Shown here piece by piece: positions 2,277-38,469 of a stretch of DNA of 64,000 nt. The translations under genes were made by a program, and so were the position numbers. The number at the start of each line of letters is the position of its first letter. Position 1 is the stretch's first letter. Source of the DNA: Octopus vulgaris (lineage: Eukaryota); NCBI GenBank assembly GCA_951406725.2, contig OX597814.1:195858001-195922000 (forward strand), read 5' to 3'. The notes beneath the pieces were generated by a model. That model saw nothing but the letters and a program-made list of their open reading frames with translations, searched no databases and was not told the DNA's origin.

Positions 2277-2340
<64 letters not shown>

Positions 2341-2561
2341 TCAATATAGGGTGGCAAGGAAAATTTTGTAGAATTTTATTGCCACCAGCGGCCCAGTGGG
2401 AAAAAATTAAATAGTCATAGACCATTTTTAAGTTCAACATTAACAATTAAGGAACGGCCATAATAGGCCATTCACCCACTAGAAATAACAGCCAAAGCTT
2501 CTACCGCAAATAAAGATCAATTCCGTAAACAGGAGAAAATTAAAAAAACATTTACCCTGTA

Positions 2562-2668
2562 ATTTCTTGTACGGTATACCGTTTCATCTGCTGTTTAATG
2601 GTAAACTAACCTGATTAAATTAAATCAAGCCAATCTTCCATAAGCCCTCAGATTCTTCAGCAAGAAAT
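2562..2668 (-). ncRNA. Type I hammerhead ribozyme (array A left arm; also 3053-3159 and 3544-3650)
   Basis: Reverse complement of the motif at 4052-4158. Confidence 0.85.
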
Positions 2669-4051
2669 AGCTCAAGTCGGAACAGATATTTACACGAGGC
2701 GTACCTAACCCTGCCAAGGCAATATCTGACCTAAAATTTTCAAATCGTCGCACTCGCGCCAAATTTATCGGCAGCAAATAAATATCAGCCGTCGATTCCA
2801 TTACGGAGTTAACCAAAAAATTCATAATTAATCAATATAGGGTGGCAAGGAAAATTTTGTAGAATTTTATTGCCACCAGCGGCCCAGTGGGAAAAAATTA
2901 AATAGTCATAGACCATTTTTAAGTTCAACATTAACAATTAAGGAACGGCCATAATAGGCCATTCACCCACTAGAAATAACAGCCAAAGCTTCTACCGCAA
3001 ATAAAGATCAATTCCGTAAACAGGAGAAAATTAAAAAAACATTTACCCTGTAATTTCTTGTACGGTATACCGTTTCATCTGCTGTTTAATGGTAAACTAA
3101 CCTGATTAAATTAAATCAAGCCAATCTTCCATAAGCCCTCAGATTCTTCAGCAAGAAATAGCTCAAGTCGGAACAGATATTTACACGAGGCGTACCTAAC
3201 CCTGCCAAGGCAATATCTGACCTAAAATTTTCAAATCGTCGCACTCGCGCCAAATTTATCGGCAGCAAATAAATATCAGCCGTCGATTCCATTACGGAGT
3301 TAACCAAAAAATTCATAATTAATCAATATAGGGTGGCAAGGAAAATTTTGTAGAATTTTATTGCCACCAGCGGCCCAGTGGGAAAAAATTAAATAGTCAT
3401 AGACCATTTTTAAGTTCAACATTAACAATTAAGGAACGGCCATAATAGGCCATTCACCCACTAGAAATAACAGCCAAAGCTTCTACCGCAAATAAAGATC
3501 AATTCCGTAAACAGGAGAAAATTAAAAAAACATTTACCCTGTAATTTCTTGTACGGTATACCGTTTCATCTGCTGTTTAATGGTAAACTAACCTGATTAA
3601 ATTAAATCAAGCCAATCTTCCATAAGCCCTCAGATTCTTCAGCAAGAAATAGCTCAAGTCGGAACAGATATTTACACGAGGCGTGTAAATTTTCTCCTGT
3701 TTACGGAATTGATCTTTATTTGCGGTAGAAGCTTTGGCTGTTATTTCTAGTGGGTGAATGGCCTATTATGGCCGTTCCTTAATTGTTAATGTTGAACTTA
3801 AAAATGGTCTATGACTATTTAATTTTTTCCCACTGGGCCGCTGGTGGCAATAAAATTCTACAAAATTTTCCTTGCCACCCTATATTGATTAATTATGAAT
3901 TTTTTGGTTAACTCCGTAATGGAATCGACGGCTGATATTTATTTGCTGCCGATAAATTTGGCGCGAGTGCGACGATTTGAAAATTTTAGGTCAGATATTG
4001 CCTTGGCAGGGTTAGGTACGCCTCGTGTAAATATCTGTTCCGACTTGAGCT

Positions 4052-4158
4052 ATTTCTTGCTGAAGAATCTGAGGGCTTATGGAAGATTGGCTTGATTTAA
4101 TTTAATCAGGTTAGTTTACCATTAAACAGCAGATGAAACGGTATACCGTACAAGAAAT
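4052..4158 (+). ncRNA. Type I hammerhead ribozyme with extended stem II (first of 14 plus-strand copies, every ~491 bp)
   Basis: Stem I atttcttg/caagaaat; core CTGAAGA 4060-4066; stem II atctg/cagat; GAAA 4135-4138; palindromic stem III ACGGTATACCGT; predicted GUA cleavage after 4150. Confidence 0.9.
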
Positions 4159-7100
4159 TACAGGGTAAATGTTTTTTTAATTTTCTCCTGTTTACGGAAT
4201 TGATCTTTATTTGCGGTAGAAGCTTTGGCTGTTATTTCTAGTGGGTGAATGGCCTATTATGGCCGTTCCTTAATTGTTAATGTTGAACTTAAAAATGGTC
4301 TATGACTATTTAATTTTTTCCCACTGGGCCGCTGGTGGCAATAAAATTCTACAAAATTTTCCTTGCCACCCTATATTGATTAATTATGAATTTTTTGGTT
4401 AATTCCGTAATGGAATCGACGGCTGATATTTATTTGCTGCCGATAAATTTGGCGCGAGTGCGACGATTTGAAAATTTTAGGTCAGATATTGCCTTGGCAG
4501 GGTTAGGTACGCCTCGTGTAAATATCTGTTCCGACTTGAGCTATTTCTTGCTGAAGAATCTGAGGGCTTATGGAAGATTGGCTTGATTTAATTTAATCAG
4601 GTTAGTTTACCATTAAACAGCAGATGAAACGGTATACCGTACAAGAAATTACAGGGTAAATGTTTTTTTAATTTTCTCCTGTTTACGGAATTGATCTTTA
4701 TTTGCGGTAGAAGCTTTGGCTGTTATTTCTAGTGGGTGAATGGCCTATTATGGCCGTTCCTTAATTGTTAATGTTGAACTTAAAAATGGTCTATGACTAT
4801 TTAATTTTTTCCCACTGGGCCGCTGGTGGCAATAAAATTCTACAAAATTTTCCTTGCCACCCTATATTGATTAATTATGAATTTTTTGGTTAATTCCGTA
4901 ATGGAATCGACGGCTGATATTTATTTGCTGCCGATAAATTTGGCGCGAGTGCGACGATTTGAAAATTTTAGGTCAGATATTGCCTTGGCAGGGTTGGGTA
5001 CGCCTCGTGTAAATATCTGTTCCGACTTGAGCTATTTCTTGCTGAAGAATCTGAGGGCTTATGGAAGATTGGCTTGATTTAATTTAATCAGGTTAGTTTA
5101 CCATTAAACAGCAGATGAAACGGTATACCGTACAAGAAATTACAGGGTAAATGTTTTTTTAATTTTCTCCTGTTTACGGAATTGATCTTTATTTGCGGTA
5201 GAAGCTTTGGCTGTTATTTCTAGTGGGTGAATGGCCTATTATGGCCGTTCCTTAATTGTTAATGTTGAACTTAAAAATGGTCTATGACTATTTAATTTTT
5301 TCCCACTGGGCCGCTGGTGGCAATAAAATTCTACAAAATTTTCCTTGCCACCCTATATTGATTAATTATGAATTTTTTGGTTAATTCCGTAATGGAATCG
5401 ACGGCTGATATTTATTTGCTGCCGATAAATTTGGCGCGAGTGCGACGATTTGAAAATTTTAGGTCAGATATTGCCTTGGCAGGGTTAGGTACGCCTCGTG
5501 TAAATATCTGTTCCGACTTGAGCTATTTCTTGCTGAAGAATCTGAGGGCTTATGGAAGATTGGCTTGATTTAATTTAATCAGGTTAGTTTACCATTAAAC
5601 AGCAGATGGAAACGGTATACCGTACAAGAAATTACAGGGTAAATGTTTTTTTAATTTTCTCCTGTTTACGGAATTGATCTTTATTTGCGGTAGAAGCTTT
5701 GGCTGTTATTTCTAGTGGGTGAATGGCCTATTATGGCCGTTCCTTAATTGTTAATGTTGAACTTAAAAATGGTCTATGACTATTTAATTTTTTCCCACTG
5801 GGCCGCTGGTGGCAATAAAATTCTACAAAATTTTCCTTGCCACCCTATATTGATTAATTATGAATTTTTTGGTTAACTCCGTAATGGAATCGACGGCTGA
5901 TATTTATTTGCTGCCGATAAATTTGGCGCGAGTGCGACGATTTGAAAATTTTAGGTCAGATATTGCCTTGGCAGGGTTGGGTACGCCTCGTGTAAATATC
6001 TGTTCCGACTTGAGCTATTTCTTGCTGAAGAATCTGAGGGCTTATGGAAGATTGGCTTGATTTAATTTAATCAGGTTAGTTTACCATTAAACAGCAGATG
6101 AAACGGTATACCGTACAAGAAATTACAGGGTAAATGTTTTTTTAATTTTCTCCTGTTTACGGAATTGATCTTTATTTGCGGTAGAAGCTTTGGCTGTTAT
6201 TTCTAGTGGGTGAATGGCCTATTATGGCCGTTCCTTAATTGTTAATGTTGAACTTAAAAATGGTCTATGACTATTTAATTTTTTCCCACTGGGCCGCTGG
6301 TGGCAATAAAATTCTACAAAATTTTCCTTGCCACCCTATATTGATTAATTATGAATTTTTTGGTTAATTCCGTAATGGAATCGACGGCTGATATTTATTT
6401 GCTGCCGATAAATTTGGCGCGAGTGCGACGATTTGAAAATTTTAGGTCAGATATTGCCTTGGCAGGGTTGGGTACGCCTCGTGTAAATATCTGTTCCGAC
6501 TTGAGCTATTTCTTGCTGAAGAATCTGAGGGCTTATGGAAGATTGGCTTGATTTAATTTAATCAGGTTAGTTTACCATTAAACAGCAGATGAAACGGTAT
6601 ACCGTACAAGAAATTACAGGGTAAATGTTTTTTTAATTTTCTCCTGTTTACGGAATTGATCTTTATTTGCGGTAGAAGCTTTGGCTGTTATTTCTAGTGG
6701 GTGAATGGCCTATTATGGCCGTTCCTTAATTGTTAATGTTGAACTTAAAAATGGTCTATGACTATTTAATTTTTTCCCACTGGGCCGCTGGTGGCAATAA
6801 AATTCTACAAAATTTTCCTTGCCACCCTATATTGATTAATTATGAATTTTTTGGTTAATTCCGTAATGGAATCGACGGCTGATATTTATTTGCTGCCGAT
6901 AAATTTGGCGCGAGTGCGACGATTTGAAAATTTTAGGTCAGATATTGCCTTGGCAGGGTTGGGTACGCCTCGTGTAAATATCTGTTCCGACTTGAGCTAT
7001 TTCTTGCTGAAGAATCTGAGGGCTTATGGAAGATTGGCTTGATTTAATTTAATCAGGTTAGTTTACCATTAAACAGCAGATGAAACGGTATACCGTACAA

Positions 7101-10100
7101 GAAATTACAGGGTAAATGTTTTTTTAATTTTCTCCTGTTTACGGAATTGATCTTTATTTGCGGTAGAAGCTTTGGCTGTTATTTCTAGTGGGTGAATGGC
7201 CTATTATGGCCGTTCCTTAATTGTTAATGTTGAACTTAAAAATGGTCTATGACTATTTAATTTTTTCCCACTGGGCCGCTGGTGGCAATAAAATTCTACA
7301 AAATTTTCCTTGCCACCCTATATTGATTAATTATGAATTTTTTGGTTAATTCCGTAATGGAATCGACGGCTGATATTTATTTGCTGCCGATAAATTTGGC
7401 GCGAGTGCGACGATTTGAAAATTTTAGGTCAGATATTGCCTTGGCAGGGTTAGGGTACGCCTCGTGTAAATATCTGTTCCGACTTGAGCTATTTCTTGCT
7501 GAAGAATCTGAGGGCTTATGGAAGATTGGCTTGATTTAATTTAATCAGGTTAGTTTACCATTAAACAGCAGATGAAACGGTATACCGTACAAGAAATTAC
7601 AGGGTAAATGTTTTTTTAATTTTCTCCTGTTTACGGAATTGATCTTTATTTGCGGTAGAAGCTTTGGCTGTTATTTCTAGTGGGTGAATGGCCTATTATG
7701 GCCGTTCCTTAATTGTTAATGTTGAACTTAAAAATGGTCTATGACTATTTAATTTTTTCCCACTGGGCCGCTGGTGGCAATAAAATTCTACAAAATTTTC
7801 CTTGCCACCCTATATTGATTAATTATGAATTTTTTGGTTAACTCCGTAATGGAATCGACGGCTGATATTTATTTGCTGCCGATAAATTTGGCGCGAGTGC
7901 GACGATTTGAAAATTTTAGGTCAGATATTGCCTTGGCAGGGTTAGGTACGCCTCGTGTAAATATCTGTTCCGACTTGAGCTATTTCTTGCTGAAGAATCT
8001 GAGGGCTTATGGAAGATTGGCTTGATTTAATTTAATCAGGTTAGTTTACCATTAAACAGCAGATGAAACGGTATACCGTACAAGAAATTACAGGGTAAAT
8101 GTTTTTTTAATTTTCTCCTGTTTACGGAATTGATCTTTATTTGCGGTAGAAGCTTTGGCTGTTATTTCTAGTGGGTGAATGGCCTATTATGGCCGTTCCT
8201 TAATTGTTAATGTTGAACTTAAAAATGGTCTATGACTATTTAATTTTTTCCCACTGGGCCGCTGGTGGCAATAAAATTCTACAAAATTTTCCTTGCCACC
8301 CTATATTGATTAATTATGAATTTTTTGGTTAACTCCGTAATGGAATCGACGGCTGATATTTATTTGCTGCCGATAAATTTGGCGCGAGTGCGACGATTTG
8401 AAAATTTTAGGTCAGATATTGCCTTGGCAGGGTTAGGTACGCCTCGTGTAAATATCTGTTCCGACTTGAGCTATTTCTTGCTGAAGAATCTGAGGGCTTA
8501 TGGAAGATTGGCTTGATTTAATTTAATCAGGTTAGTTTACCATTAAACAGCAGATGAAACGGTATACCGTACAAGAAATTACAGGGTAAATGTTTTTTTA
8601 ATTTTCTCCTGTTTACGGAATTGATCTTTATTTGCGGTAGAAGCTTTGGCTGTTATTTCTAGTGGGTGAATGGCCTATTATGGCCGTTCCTTAATTGTTA
8701 ATGTTGAACTTAAAAATGGTCTATGACTATTTAATTTTTTCCCACTGGGCCGCTGGTGGCAATAAAATTCTACAAAATTTTCCTTGCCACCCTATATTGA
8801 TTAATTATGAATTTTTTGGTTAACTCCGTAATGGAATCGACGGCTGATATTTATTTGCTGCCGATAAATTTGGCGCGAGTGCGACGATTTGAAAATTTTA
8901 GGTCAGATATTGCCTTGGCAGGGTTAGGTACGCCTCGTGTAAATATCTGTTCCGACTTGAGCTATTTCTTGCTGAAGAATCTGAGGGCTTATGGAAGATT
9001 GGCTTGATTTAATTTAATCAGGTTAGTTTACCATTAAACAGCAGATGAAACGGTATACCGTACAAGAAATTACAGGGTAAATGTTTTTTTAATTTTTCTC
9101 CTGTTTACGGAATTGATCTTTATTTGCGGTAGAAGCTTTGGCTGTTATTTCTAGTGGGTGAATGGCCTATTATGGCCGTTCCTTAATTGTTAATGTTGAA
9201 CTTAAAAATGGTCTATGACTATTTAATTTTTTCCCACTGGGCCGCTGGTGGCAATAAAATTCTACAAAATTTTCCTTGCCACCCTATATTGATTAATTAT
9301 GAATTTTTTGGTTAATTCCGTAATGGAATCGACGGCTGATATTTATTTGCTGCCGATAAATTTGGCGCGAGTGCGACGATTTGAAAATTTTAGGTCAGAT
9401 ATTGCCTTGGCAGGGTTAGGTACGCCTCGTGTAAATATCTGTTCCGACTTGAGCTATTTCTTGCTGAAGAATCTGAGGGCTTATGGAAGATTGGCTTGAT
9501 TTAATTTAATCAGGTTAGTTTACCATTAAACAGCAGATGAAACGGTATACCGTACAAGAAATTACAGGGTAAATGTTTTTTTAATTTTCTCCTGTTTACG
9601 GAATTGATCTTTATTTGCGGTAGAAGCTTTGGCTGTTATTTCTAGTGGGTGAATGGCCTATTATGGCCGTTCCTTAATTGTTAATGTTGAACTTAAAAAT
9701 GGTCTATGACTATTTAATTTTTTCCCACTGGGCCGCTGGTGGCAATAAAATTCTACAAAATTTTCCTTGCCACCCTATATTGATTAATTATGAATTTTTT
9801 GGTTAACTCCGTAATGGAATCGACGGCTGATATTTATTTGCTGCCGATAAATTTGGCGCGAGTGCGACGATTTGAAAATTTTAGGTCAGATATTGCCTTG
9901 GCAGGGTTAGGTACGCCTCGTGTAAATATCTGTTCCGACTTGAGCTATTTCTTGCTGAAGAATCTGAGGGCTTATGGAAGATTGGCTTGATTTAATTTAA
10001 TCAGGTTAGTTTACCATTAAACAGCAGATGAAACGGTATACCGTACAAGAAATTACAGGGTAAATGTTTTTTTAATTTTCTCCTGTTTACGGAATTGATC

Positions 10101-10662
10101 TTTATTTGCGGTAGAAGCTTTGGCTGTTATTTCTAGTGGGTGAATGGCCTATTATGGCCGTTCCTTAATTGTTAATGTTGAACTTAAAAATGGTCTATGA
10201 CTATTTAATTTTTTCCCACTGGGCCGCTGGTGGCAATAAAATTCTACAAAATTTTCCTTGCCACCCTATATTGATTAATTATGAATTTTTTGGTTAACTC
10301 CGTAATGGAATCGACGGCTGATATTTATTTGCTGCCGATAAATTTGGCGCGAGTGCGACGATTTGAAAATTTTAGGTCAGATATTGCCTTGGCAGGGTTA
10401 GGTACGCCTCGTGTAAATATCTGTTCCGACTTGAGCTATTTCTTGCTGAAGAATCTGAGGGCTTATGGAAGATTGGCTTGATTTAATTTAATCAGGTTAG
10501 TTTACCATTAAACAGCAGATGAAACGGTATACCGTACAAGAAATTACAGGGTAAATGTTTTTTTAATTTTCTCCTGTTTACGGAATTGATCTTTATTTGC
10601 GGTAGAAGCTTTGGCTGTTATTTCTAGTGGGTGAATGGCCTATTATGGCCGTTCCTTAATTG

Positions 10663-10703
<41 letters not shown>

Positions 10704-10708
<5 letters not shown>

Positions 10709-10916
10709 TAATCCAAACATGAAAACACAAAGAGAAAACACAACAACGCGAGGACGTGGAACAAATATAGTATCATTGGACGCTCAGGAAGGAAGGGAAG
10801 ATGCAGGGTTTAACGTTTCGAGCGGAGCTCTTCGTCAGAAACATAGGAAAAGGAAAGATCCAGAGAAGGGAAGACGGAGGAAAAAAAATCGCCAACGGTA
10901 AACGCGCGGTCACATT

Positions 10917-10920
<4 letters not shown>
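10704..10920 (-). mobile_element. Short Penelope pLTR-like fragment in (TA)n with minimal hammerhead
   Basis: Minus strand 10808-10842: gttt-CTGACGA-a-GAGC-tcc-GCTC-GAAA-cg-TT-aaac; (TA)n on both sides. Confidence 0.75.
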
Positions 10921-10964
<44 letters not shown>

Positions 10965-11186
10965 TCAATATAGGGTGGCAAAAGAAATTTTGTAGAATTC
11001 TTTTGCCACCAGCGGCCTAGTGGGAAAAAATTTAAATAGTCATAAACCATTTTTAAGTTCAACATCACAATCAAGGAACGGCCATAATAGGCCATTCACC
11101 CACTAGAAATAACAGCCAAAAGCTTTAACCGCAAAATAACGTCAATTCCGTAAACCAGGAGAAAATTAAAAAACATTTACCCTGTA

Positions 11187-11293
11187 ATTTCTTAGACGAT
11201 GCACCGTTTCATCTACTGTTTAATGGAAAACTAACCTGATTAAATTAAATCAAGCCAATCTACCATAGGCCCTTAGATTCATCAGTAAGAAAT
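11187..11293 (-). ncRNA. Type I hammerhead ribozyme, subfamily B left arm
   Basis: Reverse complement of the 11879-11985 motif. Confidence 0.85.
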
Positions 11294-11878
11294 AGCCAAG
11301 CCGGAACAGATATATTTCACGAGGCATTCTCGTTGCTACCTCGTCAATATCTGACCTAAAATTTTCAAATCGTCGCACTCGCACCAAATTTATCGGCAGC
11401 AAATAAATATAAGCCGCCGATTCCATTACGGAATTAACCAGAAAATTCATAATTAATCAATATAGGGTGGCAAAAGAAATTTTGTAGAATTCTTTTGCCA
11501 CCAGCGGCCTAGTGGGAAAAAATTTAAATAGTCATTGACGTTATTTTGCGGTTAAAGCTTTTGGCTGTTATTTCTAGTGGGTGAATGGCCTATTATGGCC
11601 GTTCCTTGATTGTGATGTTGAACTTAAAAATGGTTTATGACTATTTAAATTTTTTCCCACTAGGCCGCTGGTGGCAAAAGAATTCTACAAAATTTCTTTT
11701 GCCACCCTATATTGATTAATTATGAATTTTCTGGTTAATTCCGTAATGGAATAGGCGGCTTATATTTATTTGCTGCCGATAAATTTGGCGCGAGTGCGAC
11801 GATTTGAAAATTTTAGGTCAGATATTGACGAGGTAGCAACGAGAATGCCTCGTGAAAAATATCTGTTCCGGCTTGGCT

Positions 11879-11985
11879 ATTTCTTACTGATGAATCTAAG
11901 GGCCTGTGGTAGATTGGCTTGATTTAATTTAATCAGGTTAGTTTTCCATTAAACAGTAGATGAAACGGTGCATCGTCTAAGAAAT
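11879..11985 (+). ncRNA. Type I hammerhead ribozyme, subfamily B right arm
   Basis: atttctta-CTGATGA-atcta...tagat-GAAA-cggtgcatcg-TC-taagaaat; canonical CUGAUGA core and GUC site. Confidence 0.9.
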
Positions 11986-12313
11986 TACAGGGTAAATGTT
12001 TTTTAATTTTCTCCTGGTTTACGGAATTGACGTTATTTTGCGGTTAAAGCTTTTGGCTGTTATTTCTAGTGGGTGAATGGCCTATTATGGCCGTTCCTTG
12101 ATTGTGATATATATATATATATATATATAAATGCAAGTTGTATTATCTTTCACGGACGAATACTGGCAAAGGAAGGGTCGTTCGTTCTGTATCAAAGCAT
12201 TTCGTTATCACTGGTGCCGGCAGAACTTCTAATCAGGAAATGGATGGTGGGAAACTTTTAGTTGTGCGTGCGGACGAATACTAATCTCAAATTGAAGTGT
12301 AGCACAAATATAT

Positions 12314-17089: not shown

Positions 17090-17656
17090 TTTCTACTCTA
17101 GGCATAAGGCCCGAAATTTTTGGGGGGAGGAGGCCAGTCGATTAGATTAACCGGTACTTAATTTATCGACCCCGAAAGGATGGAAGGCAAAGTCGACCTC
17201 GGCGGAATTTGAACTCAGAACGTAACAGCAGACGAAATACCTATTTCTTTACTACCCACAAGGGGCTAAACATAGAGAGGACAATCAAGGACAGACAAAC
17301 GGATTAAGTCGATTATATCGACCCCAGTGCGTAACTGGTACTTATTTAATTGACCACGAAATGATGAAAGGCAAAGTCGACTTCGGCGGAATTTGAACTC
17401 AGAACGTAGCGGCAGACGAAATACCTATTTCTTTATTACCCACAAGGGGCTAAACACAGAGGGGACAAACAAGGACAGACATAGGTATTAAGTCGATTAC
17501 ATCGACCCCAGTGCGTAACTGGTACTTAATTTATCGACCCCGAAAGGATGAAAGGCAAAGTTGACCTCGGCGGAATTTGAACTCAGAACGTAGCGGCAGA
17601 CGAAATACCGCTAAGCATTTCGCCCGGCGTGCTAACGTCTCTGCCAGCTCGCCGCC
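17090..17656 (-). mobile_element. SINE family 1, internally multimerised
   Basis: Three repeats of the atcgaccccgaaaggatgaaaggcaaagtcgacc module; head gctcgccgcct at the right end. Confidence 0.85.
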
Positions 17657-21807: not shown

Positions 21808-23059
21808 TATATATATATATATATATTGCTAAATTTTTCTTGAGAATATTTCTTAGTGGTAAGACCATAGTGGATCTATTTCTAGCATAAGGGTGTCCAC
21901 ATAGTGATCCATCCATATACATTGTATTGCAGCTAACTGTTGTAGCTATGTTCTATATTCTATCCAATAGTTAACATACGTATCATATTAATATTCAACA
22001 GGAAGAAAGCAAATATATGTCATTACGATAACCGCCCTAAGCAAAATAATAACAATCGCAGCTACGTTCCGCCTTACAGCTACTGTAACAGCTTGCACAA
22101 ATTTATATATAGGTGTACGAGTGTATGTGTATGTGTGTGTATTTCAAGATCATAGTTATGACGTTATTGTTACAGGTCTACTAGAACACGTGACAAAATA
22201 CTGTTCAGGTTTCAAATCCCCGCTGAGCTCGATTTTTTTTTCTTTCTTTTATCTTTCTGATATCAATAGAATAACTCTCGGTCATGTTTTGAAATAGCTT
22301 CGATCCACAGTTCTTCCCCGCATTACACACAATGCGCCGTTTTGCTTTAATCAATGTAAGGAATTTAATATTGAATCGAACAGACAACTGTGAGAATGAT
22401 TGCGGTAAAAGAGGCCATCCTGCAGTGTCGTGACAATTACACAGTTTCAATTCTAGGTTGAGCTAAGTTCATTTGACTTACGTTATTATTTCTGCCCTAC
22501 GGGAGATTATAAACGTGACAAGCCTTACTTAGTATTAACGTGCTCTGGCACGGCTTAAGGCGTGATAAAGAAGACAAAGAGAGCATTTAAACAAATGAAA
22601 TAACTCGTAACTCCCAAATAATTGCAACTTTATTACTACTCATGAGAGACCTCAATGCAATGTAAGTCTGGTACCCGTGAGTAGTGAGGGCGAGTGGCCT
22701 GGTGGTTAGGGTGTTGCACACACGAATACGAGATCTGGGTTCGATTCTCGCACCGGGCGGAGATTTTTGTTCTTAGGCAAATCACATCGTGTTAGGCTGT
22801 TCTACGATCATGATCATTTCAATATTTGTCGTCTGACACATCGTGCACCTATAAAGGCAAATGTCAATTTGATGGAGGGAGTGAACTAATGTACAGTACA
22901 TGCATTTATTTGATCGTGATAAACAAATCATCTGTGCAATTATAGCAACACGAAAATTGGGTAATTCTCATTCTTTTGGTACTATTTGAGAGTTAAGCGA
23001 AAAGAGAAAAAATGAAAAAAACATAAGACATGCGCTCTAAACTAGTGAATCAGTATATA

Positions 23060-23473
23060 TTTCCTTACTGCCCACAAGCGGCTAAACATAGAGGGGACAA
23101 ACAAGGACAGGCAAAGGGATTAAGTCAATTACATCGACACCAGTGCGTAAATGGTACTTATTTTATCGACCCCGAAAGGATAAAAGGCAAAGTCGACCTC
23201 GGCAGAATTTGAACTCGGAACGTAACGACAGACGAAATACCTATTTCTTTACTACCCACAAGGGGCTAAAGACAGAGGGAACAAACAAGGATAGACAATT
23301 GGATTAAGTCGATTATATCGATCCCAGTGCGTAACTGGTACTTATTTAATCGACCCCGAAAGGATGAAAGGCAAAGTCGACCACGGCGGAATTTGAACTC
23401 AGAACGTAACGGCAGACGAAACACCGCTAAGCATTTCGCCCGGCGCGCTAACGTTTCTGCCAGCTCGTCGCCT
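23060..23473 (-). mobile_element. SINE family 1 (dimeric)
   Basis: Matches other copies. Confidence 0.85.
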
Positions 23474-30026: not shown

Positions 30027-31368
30027 AGGCGGTGAGCTGGCAGAAACGTTAGCACGCCGGGCAAAATGCATAGCGGTATTTCGTTTTCCTTTACGTTCTG
30101 CGTTCAAATTCCGCCGAGGTCGAATTTGCCTTTCATCCTTTCGGAGTCCATAAATTAAGTACCAGTTACGCACTGGGGTTGATGTAATCGACTTAATCCC
30201 TTTGTCCTTGTTTGCCCCCTCTATGTTTAGCCCCTTGTGGGCAATAAAGAAATAAGAAATGCCCCCATGTTAGATCTCACTTTCTAGCCGTTACAGCTTA
30301 CGATGGTCTCTCGCAGCAACTTCTGTATCTATCAATGGCCGATATGCATCTGAAAATAAGTCTTAGATTTCTATTAGGACTGGAAACTACTTCAGCTTTG
30401 ACAGCATTTTGACGCTTTGCAATGTACAAATGTGGTTCCTACTGGAGTCCTTAAGGCGGCGAGCTGGCAGAAACGTTAGCACGACGGGCGAAATGCTTAG
30501 CGTTATTTCGACTGCCATTACGTTCTGAGTTCAAATTCCGCCGAGGTCGACTTTGCCTTTCATCCTTTCGGGGTCGATTAAATGAGTACCAGTTACGCTC
30601 TGGGGTCGGTATAATCGAGTTAATCCGTTTGTCGGTTCTTGTTTTTTCCCCTCTGTGTTTAGCTCCTTGTGGGCAATAAAGAAATATATAGGAGATTTCA
30701 TGAGATCTTAGGATCGTGCCGCTGCCATACACACACGCATCCACGCACGCACACGTACACACATTTAGACTGCATACGAAAGGAGGCTATTTAAATGATT
30801 GCCTAACGCCACTATCTAAAATCTGGCCATTATCATCTCTTTATTTCCCTTCTCGTTCTACAACGACCTCTACTCTCCTAAACAGTCCTAGCTGTATTCA
30901 GCATCTCTCCATCCTGACATATGCACTTTATCGATATCTTCCTCTCTTCTCATGCCTATTTCTTTACTACCCACAAGGGGCTAAGCACAGAAAGGACAAA
31001 CAAGGACAGACAAACGGATTAAGTCGATTACATCGACCCCCAGTGCGTAACTGGTACTTAATTTATCGACCCCGAAAGGATGAAAGGCAAAGTCAGCCTC
31101 GGCGGAATTTGAACTTGGAACATAATGACAGATGAAATACTTATTTCTTTTACTACACACAAGGGGCTAAGCACAGAGGGGGACAAACGAGGACAGACAA
31201 ACGGATTAAGTCGATTACATCGACCCCCAGTGCGTAACTGGTATTTATTTTATCGACCCCGAAAGGATGAAAGGCAAAGTCGACCTCGGCAGAATTTGCA
31301 CTCAGAACGTAACGGCTGACGAAATACTGCTAAGCATTTCGCCCGGCGTGCTAACAATTCTGCCAGCT
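30027..31368. mobile_element. Three SINE family 1 copies (30027-30255 +, 30453-30685 +, 30958-31368 -)
   Basis: Head and core motifs as above. Confidence 0.85.
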
Positions 31369-37524: not shown

Positions 37525-37940
37525 AAGGTGGCGAGCTGGCAGAACCGTTAGTACGCCGGGAGAAATGCTTAGCAGTATTTCGTCTGCCGCTACGTTCTGA
37601 GTTCAAATTCCGCCGAGGTCGACTTTGCCTTTCATCCTTTCGGGGTCGATTAAATAAGTACCAGTTACGCACTGGGGTCGATATAATCGACTTAATCCGT
37701 TTGTCTACCCTTGTTTGTCCTCTCTGTGTGTAGCCCCTTGTGGGTAGTAAAGAAATAGGTATTTCGTCTGCCGCTACTTTCTAAGTTCAAATTCCGCCGA
37801 GGCTGACTTTGCCTTTCATCCTTTCGGGGTCGATTAAATAAGTACCAGTAACGCACTGGGGTCGATATAATCGACTTAATCCGTTTTCTGTCCTTGTTAG
37901 TCCGCTTTGTGTGTAGGCCCTTGTGGGCAGTAAAGAAATA
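37525..37940 (+). mobile_element. SINE family 1 dimer inserted in hAT transposase
   Basis: Target-site duplication aaactttataaaagagt on both sides. Confidence 0.9.
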
Positions 37941-38469
37941 GAAAACTTTATAAAAGAGTGCATGATGGAAACAGCAAATGACTTGTTTTCCTGAAAAAGC
38001 TAACATATTTGGCTGTATCAGCCTTTCAACAAGTTCAGTTGTGCGGAGAATAGAAGAACTTGGGGAGAATATACAGTTACAAATACATGAGAAAGCTTAG
38101 AAATGTTTGTGGTATTCTGTTGCAATAGATGATTCTACTGATCCCTCTAGTACGTCACAATGTCTTGTCTTAATTACAATTGTGAGATTATAGAAGAAAT
38201 GGCATACGTTTGCAGTATACATCGAACAAAAACTGGAGAAATATTTTTATAGAGGCGCAGAAAATTTTGCAAAACTATAACGTTCAGTGGAAGCAGCTTC
38301 AGTGTATTACAGTTGATGGAGGTAAAAACATGGCAGGAGTGAGGAAGGATTTTGTAGGGCAGATCCAGACCAAGTTGGAGGAGCTTCAACTTCCGAAAGC
38401 ACTGTTTATACACTGCATTATACATCAGCAAGCACTCTGACGAAAATACTTAGATATTTCTTGCGTATT

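Follow-up and report, generated by a model that had tools for sequence, protein, structure and literature searches.

A dispersed 491-bp repeat of Octopus vulgaris with the sequence of a non-LTR retrozyme and insertion ends of Penelope type

A 64,000-nucleotide stretch of the Octopus vulgaris genome (contig OX597814.1, positions 195,858,001 to 195,922,000; hereafter the window) contains a 491-bp tandem repeat, raising the question of what the repeat is and how it came to be inserted there. The initial annotation proposed a tandem retrozyme with one hammerhead ribozyme per unit, a candidate circular RNA replicon of a class thought to be mobilized by Penelope-like elements (PLEs). We find that the sequence has the features of such a tandem retrozyme, and that the ends of its insertions point to the machinery that moves it.

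The repeat unit and its hammerhead

The repeat forms two arrays in the window, each composed of two arms joined head-to-head inside (TA)n, a layout that the initial annotation does not mention. In array A, TRF revealed a period of 491 at 2336-3684 (2.7 copies) and at 3688-10667 (14.2 copies), with units that are 99.6-100% identical to one another. Numbering the unit from the first base 3' of the predicted ribozyme cut, the 2.75-unit inverted arm (2336-3684, minus strand) has its 5' end at unit 359 and its 3' end at unit 234-237, referred to as site 2, next to the (TA)n target at 2270-2335. The arms meet at 3685-3687. The 14.2-unit direct arm (3688-10667, plus strand) starts at unit 29 and ends at unit 131, referred to as site 1, where it abuts (TA)n at 10668-10704. 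Array B (10957-12108) represents an independent insertion, from a subfamily with approximately 90% identity to A. Its inverted arm (10957-11535, minus strand) and direct arm (11534-12108, plus strand) are 1.2 units each, have their 3' ends at site 2 and site 1, respectively, and are flanked by (TA)n at 10921-10956 and 12109-12130. As the flanks on either side are (TA)n, a target-site duplication could not be delimited at these arrays or at the other loci described below. The arrays are separated by an unrelated fragment (10705-10920, minus strand) in which a minimal hammerhead core lies at 10838; another PLE-type element probably left its 3' end here.

A hammerhead descriptor that was matched by none of 2000 shuffled sequences identified 13 plus-strand copies in array A, with predicted cuts after 4150, 4641, 5132, 6115 and onwards to 10536, and three minus-strand copies in its inverted arm (2562-2668, 3053-3159 and 3544-3650; predicted cuts after 2570, 3061 and 3552). 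Array B contains two more, at 11187-11293 on the minus strand and 11879-11985 on the plus strand, with predicted cuts after 11195 and 11977, respectively. A fourteenth plus-strand copy in array A (5525-5632) fails the descriptor owing to one extra G before GAAA, either a mutation or an assembly error. The annotated copy numbers of 14 plus and 3 minus in array A and 2 in array B are therefore borne out by the descriptor and by reading of the sequence, with the fourteenth copy imperfect; the accompanying claim that every full unit has a hammerhead holds, as regards an intact motif, for 13 of the 14 plus-strand copies.

In the example at 4052-4158 (plus strand), which was identified by the descriptor, folding and covariation, helix I is formed by 4052-4059 and 4151-4158, the CUGAAGA core occupies 4060-4066, and helix II (4067-4071 and 4130-4134) carries a long extension of approximately 60 nt and is followed by GAAA. 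Helix III (4138-4149) is palindromic, and the cut is predicted after 4150, giving a predicted 491-nt monomer from cut to cut at 4151-4641 on the plus strand. The hallmarks of a type I hammerhead are present, namely the CUGANGA, GAAA and NUH core and three helices with the motif open at helix I, and the hammerhead fold is also obtained for the motif in isolation (z -5.7; 0 of 200 shuffles). The Rfam hammerhead search that the initial annotation had named as a check gave no support: neither the whole window at the gathering score nor the unit region 3900-4700 at E<=10 returned a match. The Rfam models probably miss this hammerhead owing to its long helix II.

Covariation was analyzed in an alignment of 17 natural copies from different subfamilies. 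RNAalifold predicted 108 pairs in the whole unit, and the only four with changes on both sides lie in helices I and II, the helices in which the array B copy at 11879-11985 carries compensatory changes. The 35 hammerhead pairs are paired in 99.5% of cells over the 17 copies, compared to 28-46% for slid controls. They include 16 two-sided cells, a number reached by none of 500 shuffles, although these cells represent perhaps four events and the kinship of the copies can inflate the shuffle test. Conservation of the core over genomic copies, the lack of which was to count against the annotation, is also seen: at each of the 10 core positions tallied no more than 2 of 288-295 copies deviate (the copies are not independent and include one locus partly counted twice), and position N7 is variable (A196, T83, C6, G4). 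Taken alone this invariance is weak evidence, since 89% of sites in the unit have less than 5% minor letters.

Whether the predicted ribozyme would be active is less clear. The palindromic helix III is predicted to pair with a second copy at -18.8 kcal/mol, compared to -2.9 kcal/mol as a hairpin, and would be compatible with cleavage as a dimer as described in PMC4209133. In the context of the window, over one or two units or a circle, helix I is predicted to be out-competed (P<=0.04). For transcripts ending approximately 14 nt past the cut, helix I has a predicted probability of 0.35-0.93 in 13 of the 16 other copies; after adding approximately 50 nt it falls to 0.03 or below in the six A-type copies. 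This length dependence could reflect a switch in which the RNA is cut and then locked, or simply model error. The first pair of helix II, 10.1-11.1, is A-U in the unit and G-U in one subfamily, whereas the hammerhead account in PMC4209133 gives it as normally G-C. Together, the A-U pair and the predicted competition for helix I count against ribozyme activity. In related systems, only one of nine Xenopus retrozyme dimers is reported to cleave in vitro (10.64898/2026.07.22.740005), and hammerhead cleavage is reported to be dispensable for PLE insertion in vitro (PMC11167929).

A young dispersed family and its older relatives

The initial annotation anticipated dispersed copies, and a genome-wide search found them in abundance. 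In the assembly (2.8 Gb in 227 contigs), a 32-mer of the unit has 2,588 exact matches, compared to 0 for a control. The first 100 matches listed fall into 38 clusters in 99 Mb, giving an estimate of approximately 1,000 loci, and among these same matches all 14 clusters that hold both strands are ordered minus then plus. Fourteen lone pattern matches, inspected within 1.5 kb around each, are all short retrozyme insertions. Majority sequences are letter-identical between many loci on different contigs, indicating recent spread. Many variants of the unit are also present in two sequencing runs whose label names a second organism.

The unit has a GC content of approximately 0.37, and no LTR, PBS or PPT was seen. 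Its longest open reading frames are 40-76 codons, are not kept in all subfamilies, and include no RT or GIY-YIG frame. One 66-codon frame was taken as chance, as it is absent from some subfamilies and has no Atlas match. By sequence, the unit satisfies the definition of an animal non-LTR retrozyme as it is given in PMC7229834 and 10.64898/2026.07.22.740005.

Two sister families share the layout of the 491-bp unit and are older. Family 2, reached through a weak profile match beside a PLE, has a period of approximately 445 nt (1,056 candidates, 40 scored) and is 57% identical to the unit (248 of 436 columns), with two ends approximately 90 nt apart. It has its own hammerhead at the same position, with CTGATGA and GAAA then GTC in 9 of 12 copies. 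The third family has a period of approximately 452 (270 candidates, 40 scored), a different hammerhead, in which helix III is palindromic, and ends approximately 95 nt apart in BLAST coordinates. A decayed GIY-YIG-like frame end next to one third-family locus (L190) was discarded as a candidate, as its one weak match elsewhere has no adjoining unit. None of 30 Rfam hits for a sister family is a hammerhead; all that came up were sub-threshold miRNA and snoRNA hits at two loci. Across the three families, the long tail (the interval between the two ends) and the ribozyme thus persist while the ribozyme sequence turns over.

These data bear on whether the repeat is an ordinary satellite, or a DNA rolling-circle repeat, expanded by unequal crossover and carrying a dead or chance hammerhead look-alike. 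Such a reading would fit the tandem arrangement, the lack of an Rfam match and the mosaic structure of two loci described below. It is at odds with the failure of shuffled sequences to match the descriptor, the confinement of compensatory pairs to the ribozyme, the approximately 1,000 short, scattered loci with fixed ends in (TA)n, and the retention of a different hammerhead by each of three families; we give it almost no credence. The 491-bp repeat is a young dispersed mobile family and not a satellite.

Sequencing runs provided further observations. The stretch is present in 18 of 21 run rows, 14 of which were guessed, and none recorded, to be RNA. A 521-nt contig from run X2 that closes head-to-tail was discarded as a candidate circle: the same joint occurs in X16 and in the genome, and it has no value for circularity since tandem DNA has the same head-to-tail joint. 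Run X1, guessed to be RNA, yielded minor contigs with clustered A>G and T>C changes. At 9 of 12 sites checked the altered letter occurs in at most 2 of approximately 270-340 genomic copies, and at the other three in 6, 3 and 12 copies. These clusters look like editing of double-stranded RNA from inverted arms, which, if read through, would fold into kilobase hairpins.

Insertion ends and the Penelope-like signature

To define the insertions, ends were mapped in the two window arrays and 56 further stretches, representing 57 distinct loci; L034 was left out because it duplicates L033, and a C7 locus spans two stretches. The typical locus consists of two head-to-head arms within (TA)n. Ninety-seven of 106 segments end in (TA)n, and the remaining nine comprise two at a stretch edge and seven internal breaks or rearrangements. 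Despite the 49 AT dinucleotides available per unit, 93 of the 97 TA-abutting 3' ends fall at two sites, unit 127-136 (46 ends) and unit 230-241 (47 ends). The modes of these sites, 131 for site 1 and 237 for site 2, are 106 nt apart and bound a 'tail' that in an example unit occupies 4282-4387 on the plus strand, from site 1 (4281) to site 2 (4387). At 37 of 40 two-arm loci there is one end at each site, and at none is one site used twice; two of the remaining loci have a shortened site 1 and one is rearranged. As the 57 loci were the top BLAST matches, 20 further loci were picked by position. Both ends were recognized at nine of these, all nine of which obey the one-end-per-site rule, while nine showed one recognized end and two showed none.

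The 5' ends are less regular. Overall, 25 of 98 lie in the first 41 nt after the predicted cut. Among long arms 13 of 61 do so (p=0.0014 against a uniform distribution), compared to 4 of 61 in the 41 nt before it. This cluster may be a sign of germ-line cleavage or of stalling at the junction left by ligation. Structure or microhomology could also be its source, since 5' ends cluster at unit 183-210, approximately 278 and 331-360 as well.

Inverted arms are also produced by L1 twin priming, in which the first primer sits on the poly(A) tail and a second, at a variable site, gives rise to an inverted 5' arm. The inverted arm is shared with the octopus insertions, whereas in the latter both sites are internal and fixed and each arm can be many units long. 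An L1-style scheme, in which the first arm would end at the site of the second primer, found no support, as the 5' ends of the site-2 arms are scattered.

A closer precedent is found in PLEs, which are described as having inverted 5'-truncated arms, a tail of 30-40 bp at one end and (TA)n targets, and as forming partial tandems themselves (PMC8557442). A purified PLE protein is reported to cut both strands of AT-rich DNA and to initiate reverse transcription internally, at the two sites that delimit the tail (PMC11167929). Canonical EN+ PLEs with a C-terminal GIY-YIG domain, as described in these two sources, resemble the unit in that they are truncated at the 5' end, have tandem and inverted arms, target (TA)n, can carry a one-end tail arising from two internal RT starts, and have a hammerhead upstream of the 3' end. 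The unit differs from them in having no ORF, a tail of 106 nt instead of 30-40, a full hammerhead with a 4-bp helix III, and no match to the pLTRs sampled.

We scored 150 of 6,136 GIY-YIG candidates and 130 of 23,292 protein candidates for PLEs in the octopus genome. Young PLEs are present, with open RT plus GIY-YIG frames of 781 and 784 codons. Mapping of two of these loci (L136 and L138) revealed two 3' ends in (TA)n, one per arm, and the same two-end layout was seen by eye at L148, L172, L173/174 and L175/176. The tails of the in-genome PLEs are 32-40 nt, compared to 106 nt in the unit. In blastn and profile searches of 56 PLE-locus stretches no PLE resembled the unit, and the only hits were separate retrozyme insertions. 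Pieces of PLE coding sequence occur in 5 of 104 stretches.

The retrozyme insertion ends carry the PLE 'tail' signature. The annotated proposal of mobilization by PLEs is thereby strengthened, as the fixed two-site ends in (TA)n match the PLE pattern, including that of young PLEs in the same genome. We consider it very likely that this non-LTR retrozyme is moved in trans by PLE-type two-site priming.

The template of the arms and the place of the repeat among known elements

The observations that any mechanism has to accommodate are the motif, its covariation, dispersal, the target, the two-site rule, near-clonal units and seamless junctions. The last two concern the template. Of the variants found inside loci, 86 occur in a single unit each, and only two, confined to array A, are shared between units (C7 was excluded from this tally). 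Other variants occur at just one of the 57 loci sampled from approximately 1,000; at L058 (4 units), L065 (8), L069 (3) and array B (3), these are present throughout both arms, in every unit that covers the position. At 285 of 290 junctions (304 less 14 double matches), the spacer spanning the cut is unaltered. Copying of a single monomer fits the near-clonal units, the seamless junctions and the post-cut 5' truncations. A monomer needs re-multimerization at some step, since a linear copy cannot exceed its template. Later unequal crossover is disfavored because shared variants are rare, as is jumping of the RT because the junctions are clean. Array A is mosaic at two sites and the C7 locus at one (3 of 10 units), which a single circle does not explain. 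The simplest reading, which we find somewhat more likely than not, is that the template was a circle. Self-cleavage and a 491-nt circle, as put forward in the initial annotation, are plausible.

We envisage the following sequence of events. Arrays would be transcribed, and the hammerhead would cut after GUH to release units of approximately 490 nt, either as a monomer or as a dimer through the palindromic helix III; a host ligase may then circularize these units. From the insertion ends and PLE biochemistry, a PLE endonuclease would nick both strands of (TA)n, and the two DNA 3' ends would prime reverse transcription, one strand at unit 131 and the other at unit 237. Each cDNA would extend for 0.1 to 14 units, most simply around one circular monomer, and stop randomly or just past the cut site. 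Finally, the cDNAs would join head-to-head to give the structure seen at the loci, (TA)n - inverted arm - direct arm - (TA)n. In its fullest form, which we put forward tentatively and hold at slightly less than even confidence, the scheme is that of a clan of retrozyme families, at least three in succession, whose copies record two-primer rolling-circle reverse transcription of a ribozyme-made circle by a PLE RT/EN dimer at (TA)n nicks. Priming would take place at structure-defined sites approximately 100 nt apart and yield two multi-unit cDNAs that join head-to-head, and the driver would be either a PLE with a long tail or one with a short tail that the RNA fold re-aims.

The same two-site priming might instead use a linear template, either a partly cleaved multimer or monomers between which the RT jumps, with the hammerhead only setting the 5' ends. 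A cleaved linear multimer accounts for the post-cut cluster of 5' ends equally well as a circle, such a pile-up being expected of a cleaved linear 5' end. The mosaic arrays, the partial tandems made by PLEs themselves (PMC8557442) and the report that unprocessed RNA is the main PLE substrate in vitro (PMC11167929) also favor it. Against it, a variant from one unit could not fill the eight units of both L065 arms without re-multimerization, jumping would be expected to leave scars at junctions that are almost all exact, and the ratio of shared to private variants speaks against later unequal crossover. We regard a linear template as rather unlikely.

The term replicon in the initial annotation implies more, namely that a circle is copied from RNA to RNA as in viroids, with the DNA copies as by-products. 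The whole unit does have a stable fold (z -5.0), and replication of this kind has been floated as one possible source of the RNA heterogeneity of mussel retrozymes (PMC7229834). The fold is branched rather than rod-like, though, and on its antisense strand the unit gave no match to the hammerhead descriptor. Transcription from DNA plus retrotransposition covers all features seen, and inverted arms predict antisense RNA in any case. We saw no sign of RNA-to-RNA replication, leaving this part of the annotation without support, and consider an RNA replicon highly improbable. Plant LTR retrozymes and viroid-like circular RNAs are likewise small, structured and hammerhead-processed RNAs, a processing that is predicted for the unit, yet the unit, unlike them, gives no pointer to RNA replication. 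The plant elements are described as having type III hammerheads, LTRs, a 4-bp TSD and a Gypsy helper (PMC7229834; 10.64898/2026.07.22.740005).

The closest relatives in kind are the animal non-LTR retrozymes of coral, mussel and axolotl, as described in PMC7229834 and in the vertebrate survey 10.64898/2026.07.22.740005. They share with the unit tandem non-coding repeats with one type I hammerhead each, a GC content of approximately 37%, no LTR, PBS or PPT seen, and coexisting PLEs. They differ in that their RNAs on blots are 170-400 nt, compared to the unit of 491 nt, and in that the unit has a helix II extension of approximately 60 nt with an A-U first pair. Circles have been demonstrated for them and are predicted for the octopus unit. 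The annotated view that 491 nt is at the long end for the class holds in comparison with a range of 150-450 bp (PMC7229834), but families of 51-972 bp have also been described (10.64898/2026.07.22.740005). None of the retrozyme descriptions compared includes a two-armed insertion in (TA)n whose 3' ends lie at two fixed sites, as seen for the octopus unit. A literature search, resting largely on the main text of openly available papers, found neither a cephalopod retrozyme nor two-site retrozyme ends. The retrozyme class and the proposal of PLE mobilization were already known; the insertion anatomy is new here.

According to a 2020 review (PMC7761336), animal retrozyme repeats show no motif that indicates a helper element, and in the 2026 preprint 10.64898/2026.07.22.740005 a role of PLEs is argued from co-occurrence and pLTR trees, with the mechanism still to be worked out. 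The octopus family provides unusually direct genomic evidence on mechanism, as PLE-type integration can be read from the insertion ends: dozens of loci show the PLE signature with single-base precision, in a genome that also contains young PLE genes that are intact. How a retrozyme integrates thus becomes a defined assay with a given protein, RNA and target, predicted starts at 131 and 237, and linear versus circular template as the variable. Mapping of retrozyme 3' ends in any assembled genome could similarly reveal helpers. If the rolling-circle reading of the clan is true, these insertions would be the first mechanistic read-out of animal ribozyme circles entering DNA.

Related families and autonomous elements

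Two older sister retrozyme families, with periods of about 445 nt (second family) and 452 nt (third family), carry differing hammerheads within the same two-end layout (genomic loci L178-L188; L104:425-1020 on the minus strand, L190 and L191). In both, the tail, the stretch between the two internal RT start sites, measures approximately 90-100 nt. The second family also has in common with the 491-bp unit a 16-nt motif located upstream of the ribozyme. The genome (G000) further contains at least three young, two-ORF Penelope-like element (PLE) families with open RT/GIY-YIG frames of 781 or 784 codons (L131-L147, L171, L172). Inspection by eye revealed variant hammerhead cores in these young PLEs, for example UUGAUAA, which we read as U-A replacing the C3-G8 pair.

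Promoter-like motifs and the 66-codon frame

Each 491-bp unit carries TTTGGCGCG followed by TTTGAA (3945-3985), and its helix II extension contains a CCAAT box (4085-4095). These motifs are putatively similar to E2F/CHR/NF-Y promoter elements. CCAAT and TGACGTCA repeats are present in the PLE terminal repeats (pLTRs) as well. Several subfamilies, though not every one, keep open a 66-codon frame (4386-4586) that begins at priming site 2; the commonest deletion is 6 nt and in frame. An Atlas search with this frame returned no match.

Other repeats in the window

Adjacent to the arrays is a 216-bp minus-strand fragment (10705-10920) with a minimal hammerhead core at 10838, the 3' end of which adjoins the (TA)n that array A also borders. 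This fragment is one of three insertions hosted by a single microsatellite cluster. By eye, a decayed piece resembling it lies near 940-1090. The plus strand at 1325-1921 has a 199-codon frame that, judging by motif, presumably resembles the 3'-terminal part of an RTE-type LINE. An abundant SINE-like repeat, presumably an octopus SINE, occurs in dispersed tandem pairs of 184-187 bp (17148-17609, 23058-23425, 30957-31328 and 37575-37941).

Variation among units, loci and sequencing runs

Among array A units, variants at unit positions 253 and 355 are seen in all four combinations, a mosaic possibly due to a polishing artefact, template switching or gene conversion. L033 and L034 (C30), separated by about 360 kb, contain an identical insertion in opposite orientations, which looks like an inverted segmental duplication. 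For window 3959-4449, sequencing run X2 has a single contig, representing one unit variant; X1 has one dominant variant plus contigs with editing-like changes. In contrast to these few variants, runs X16 and X17 yielded 192-1,499 contigs. Provided that X1 and X2 are RNA, the expressed loci may be few.
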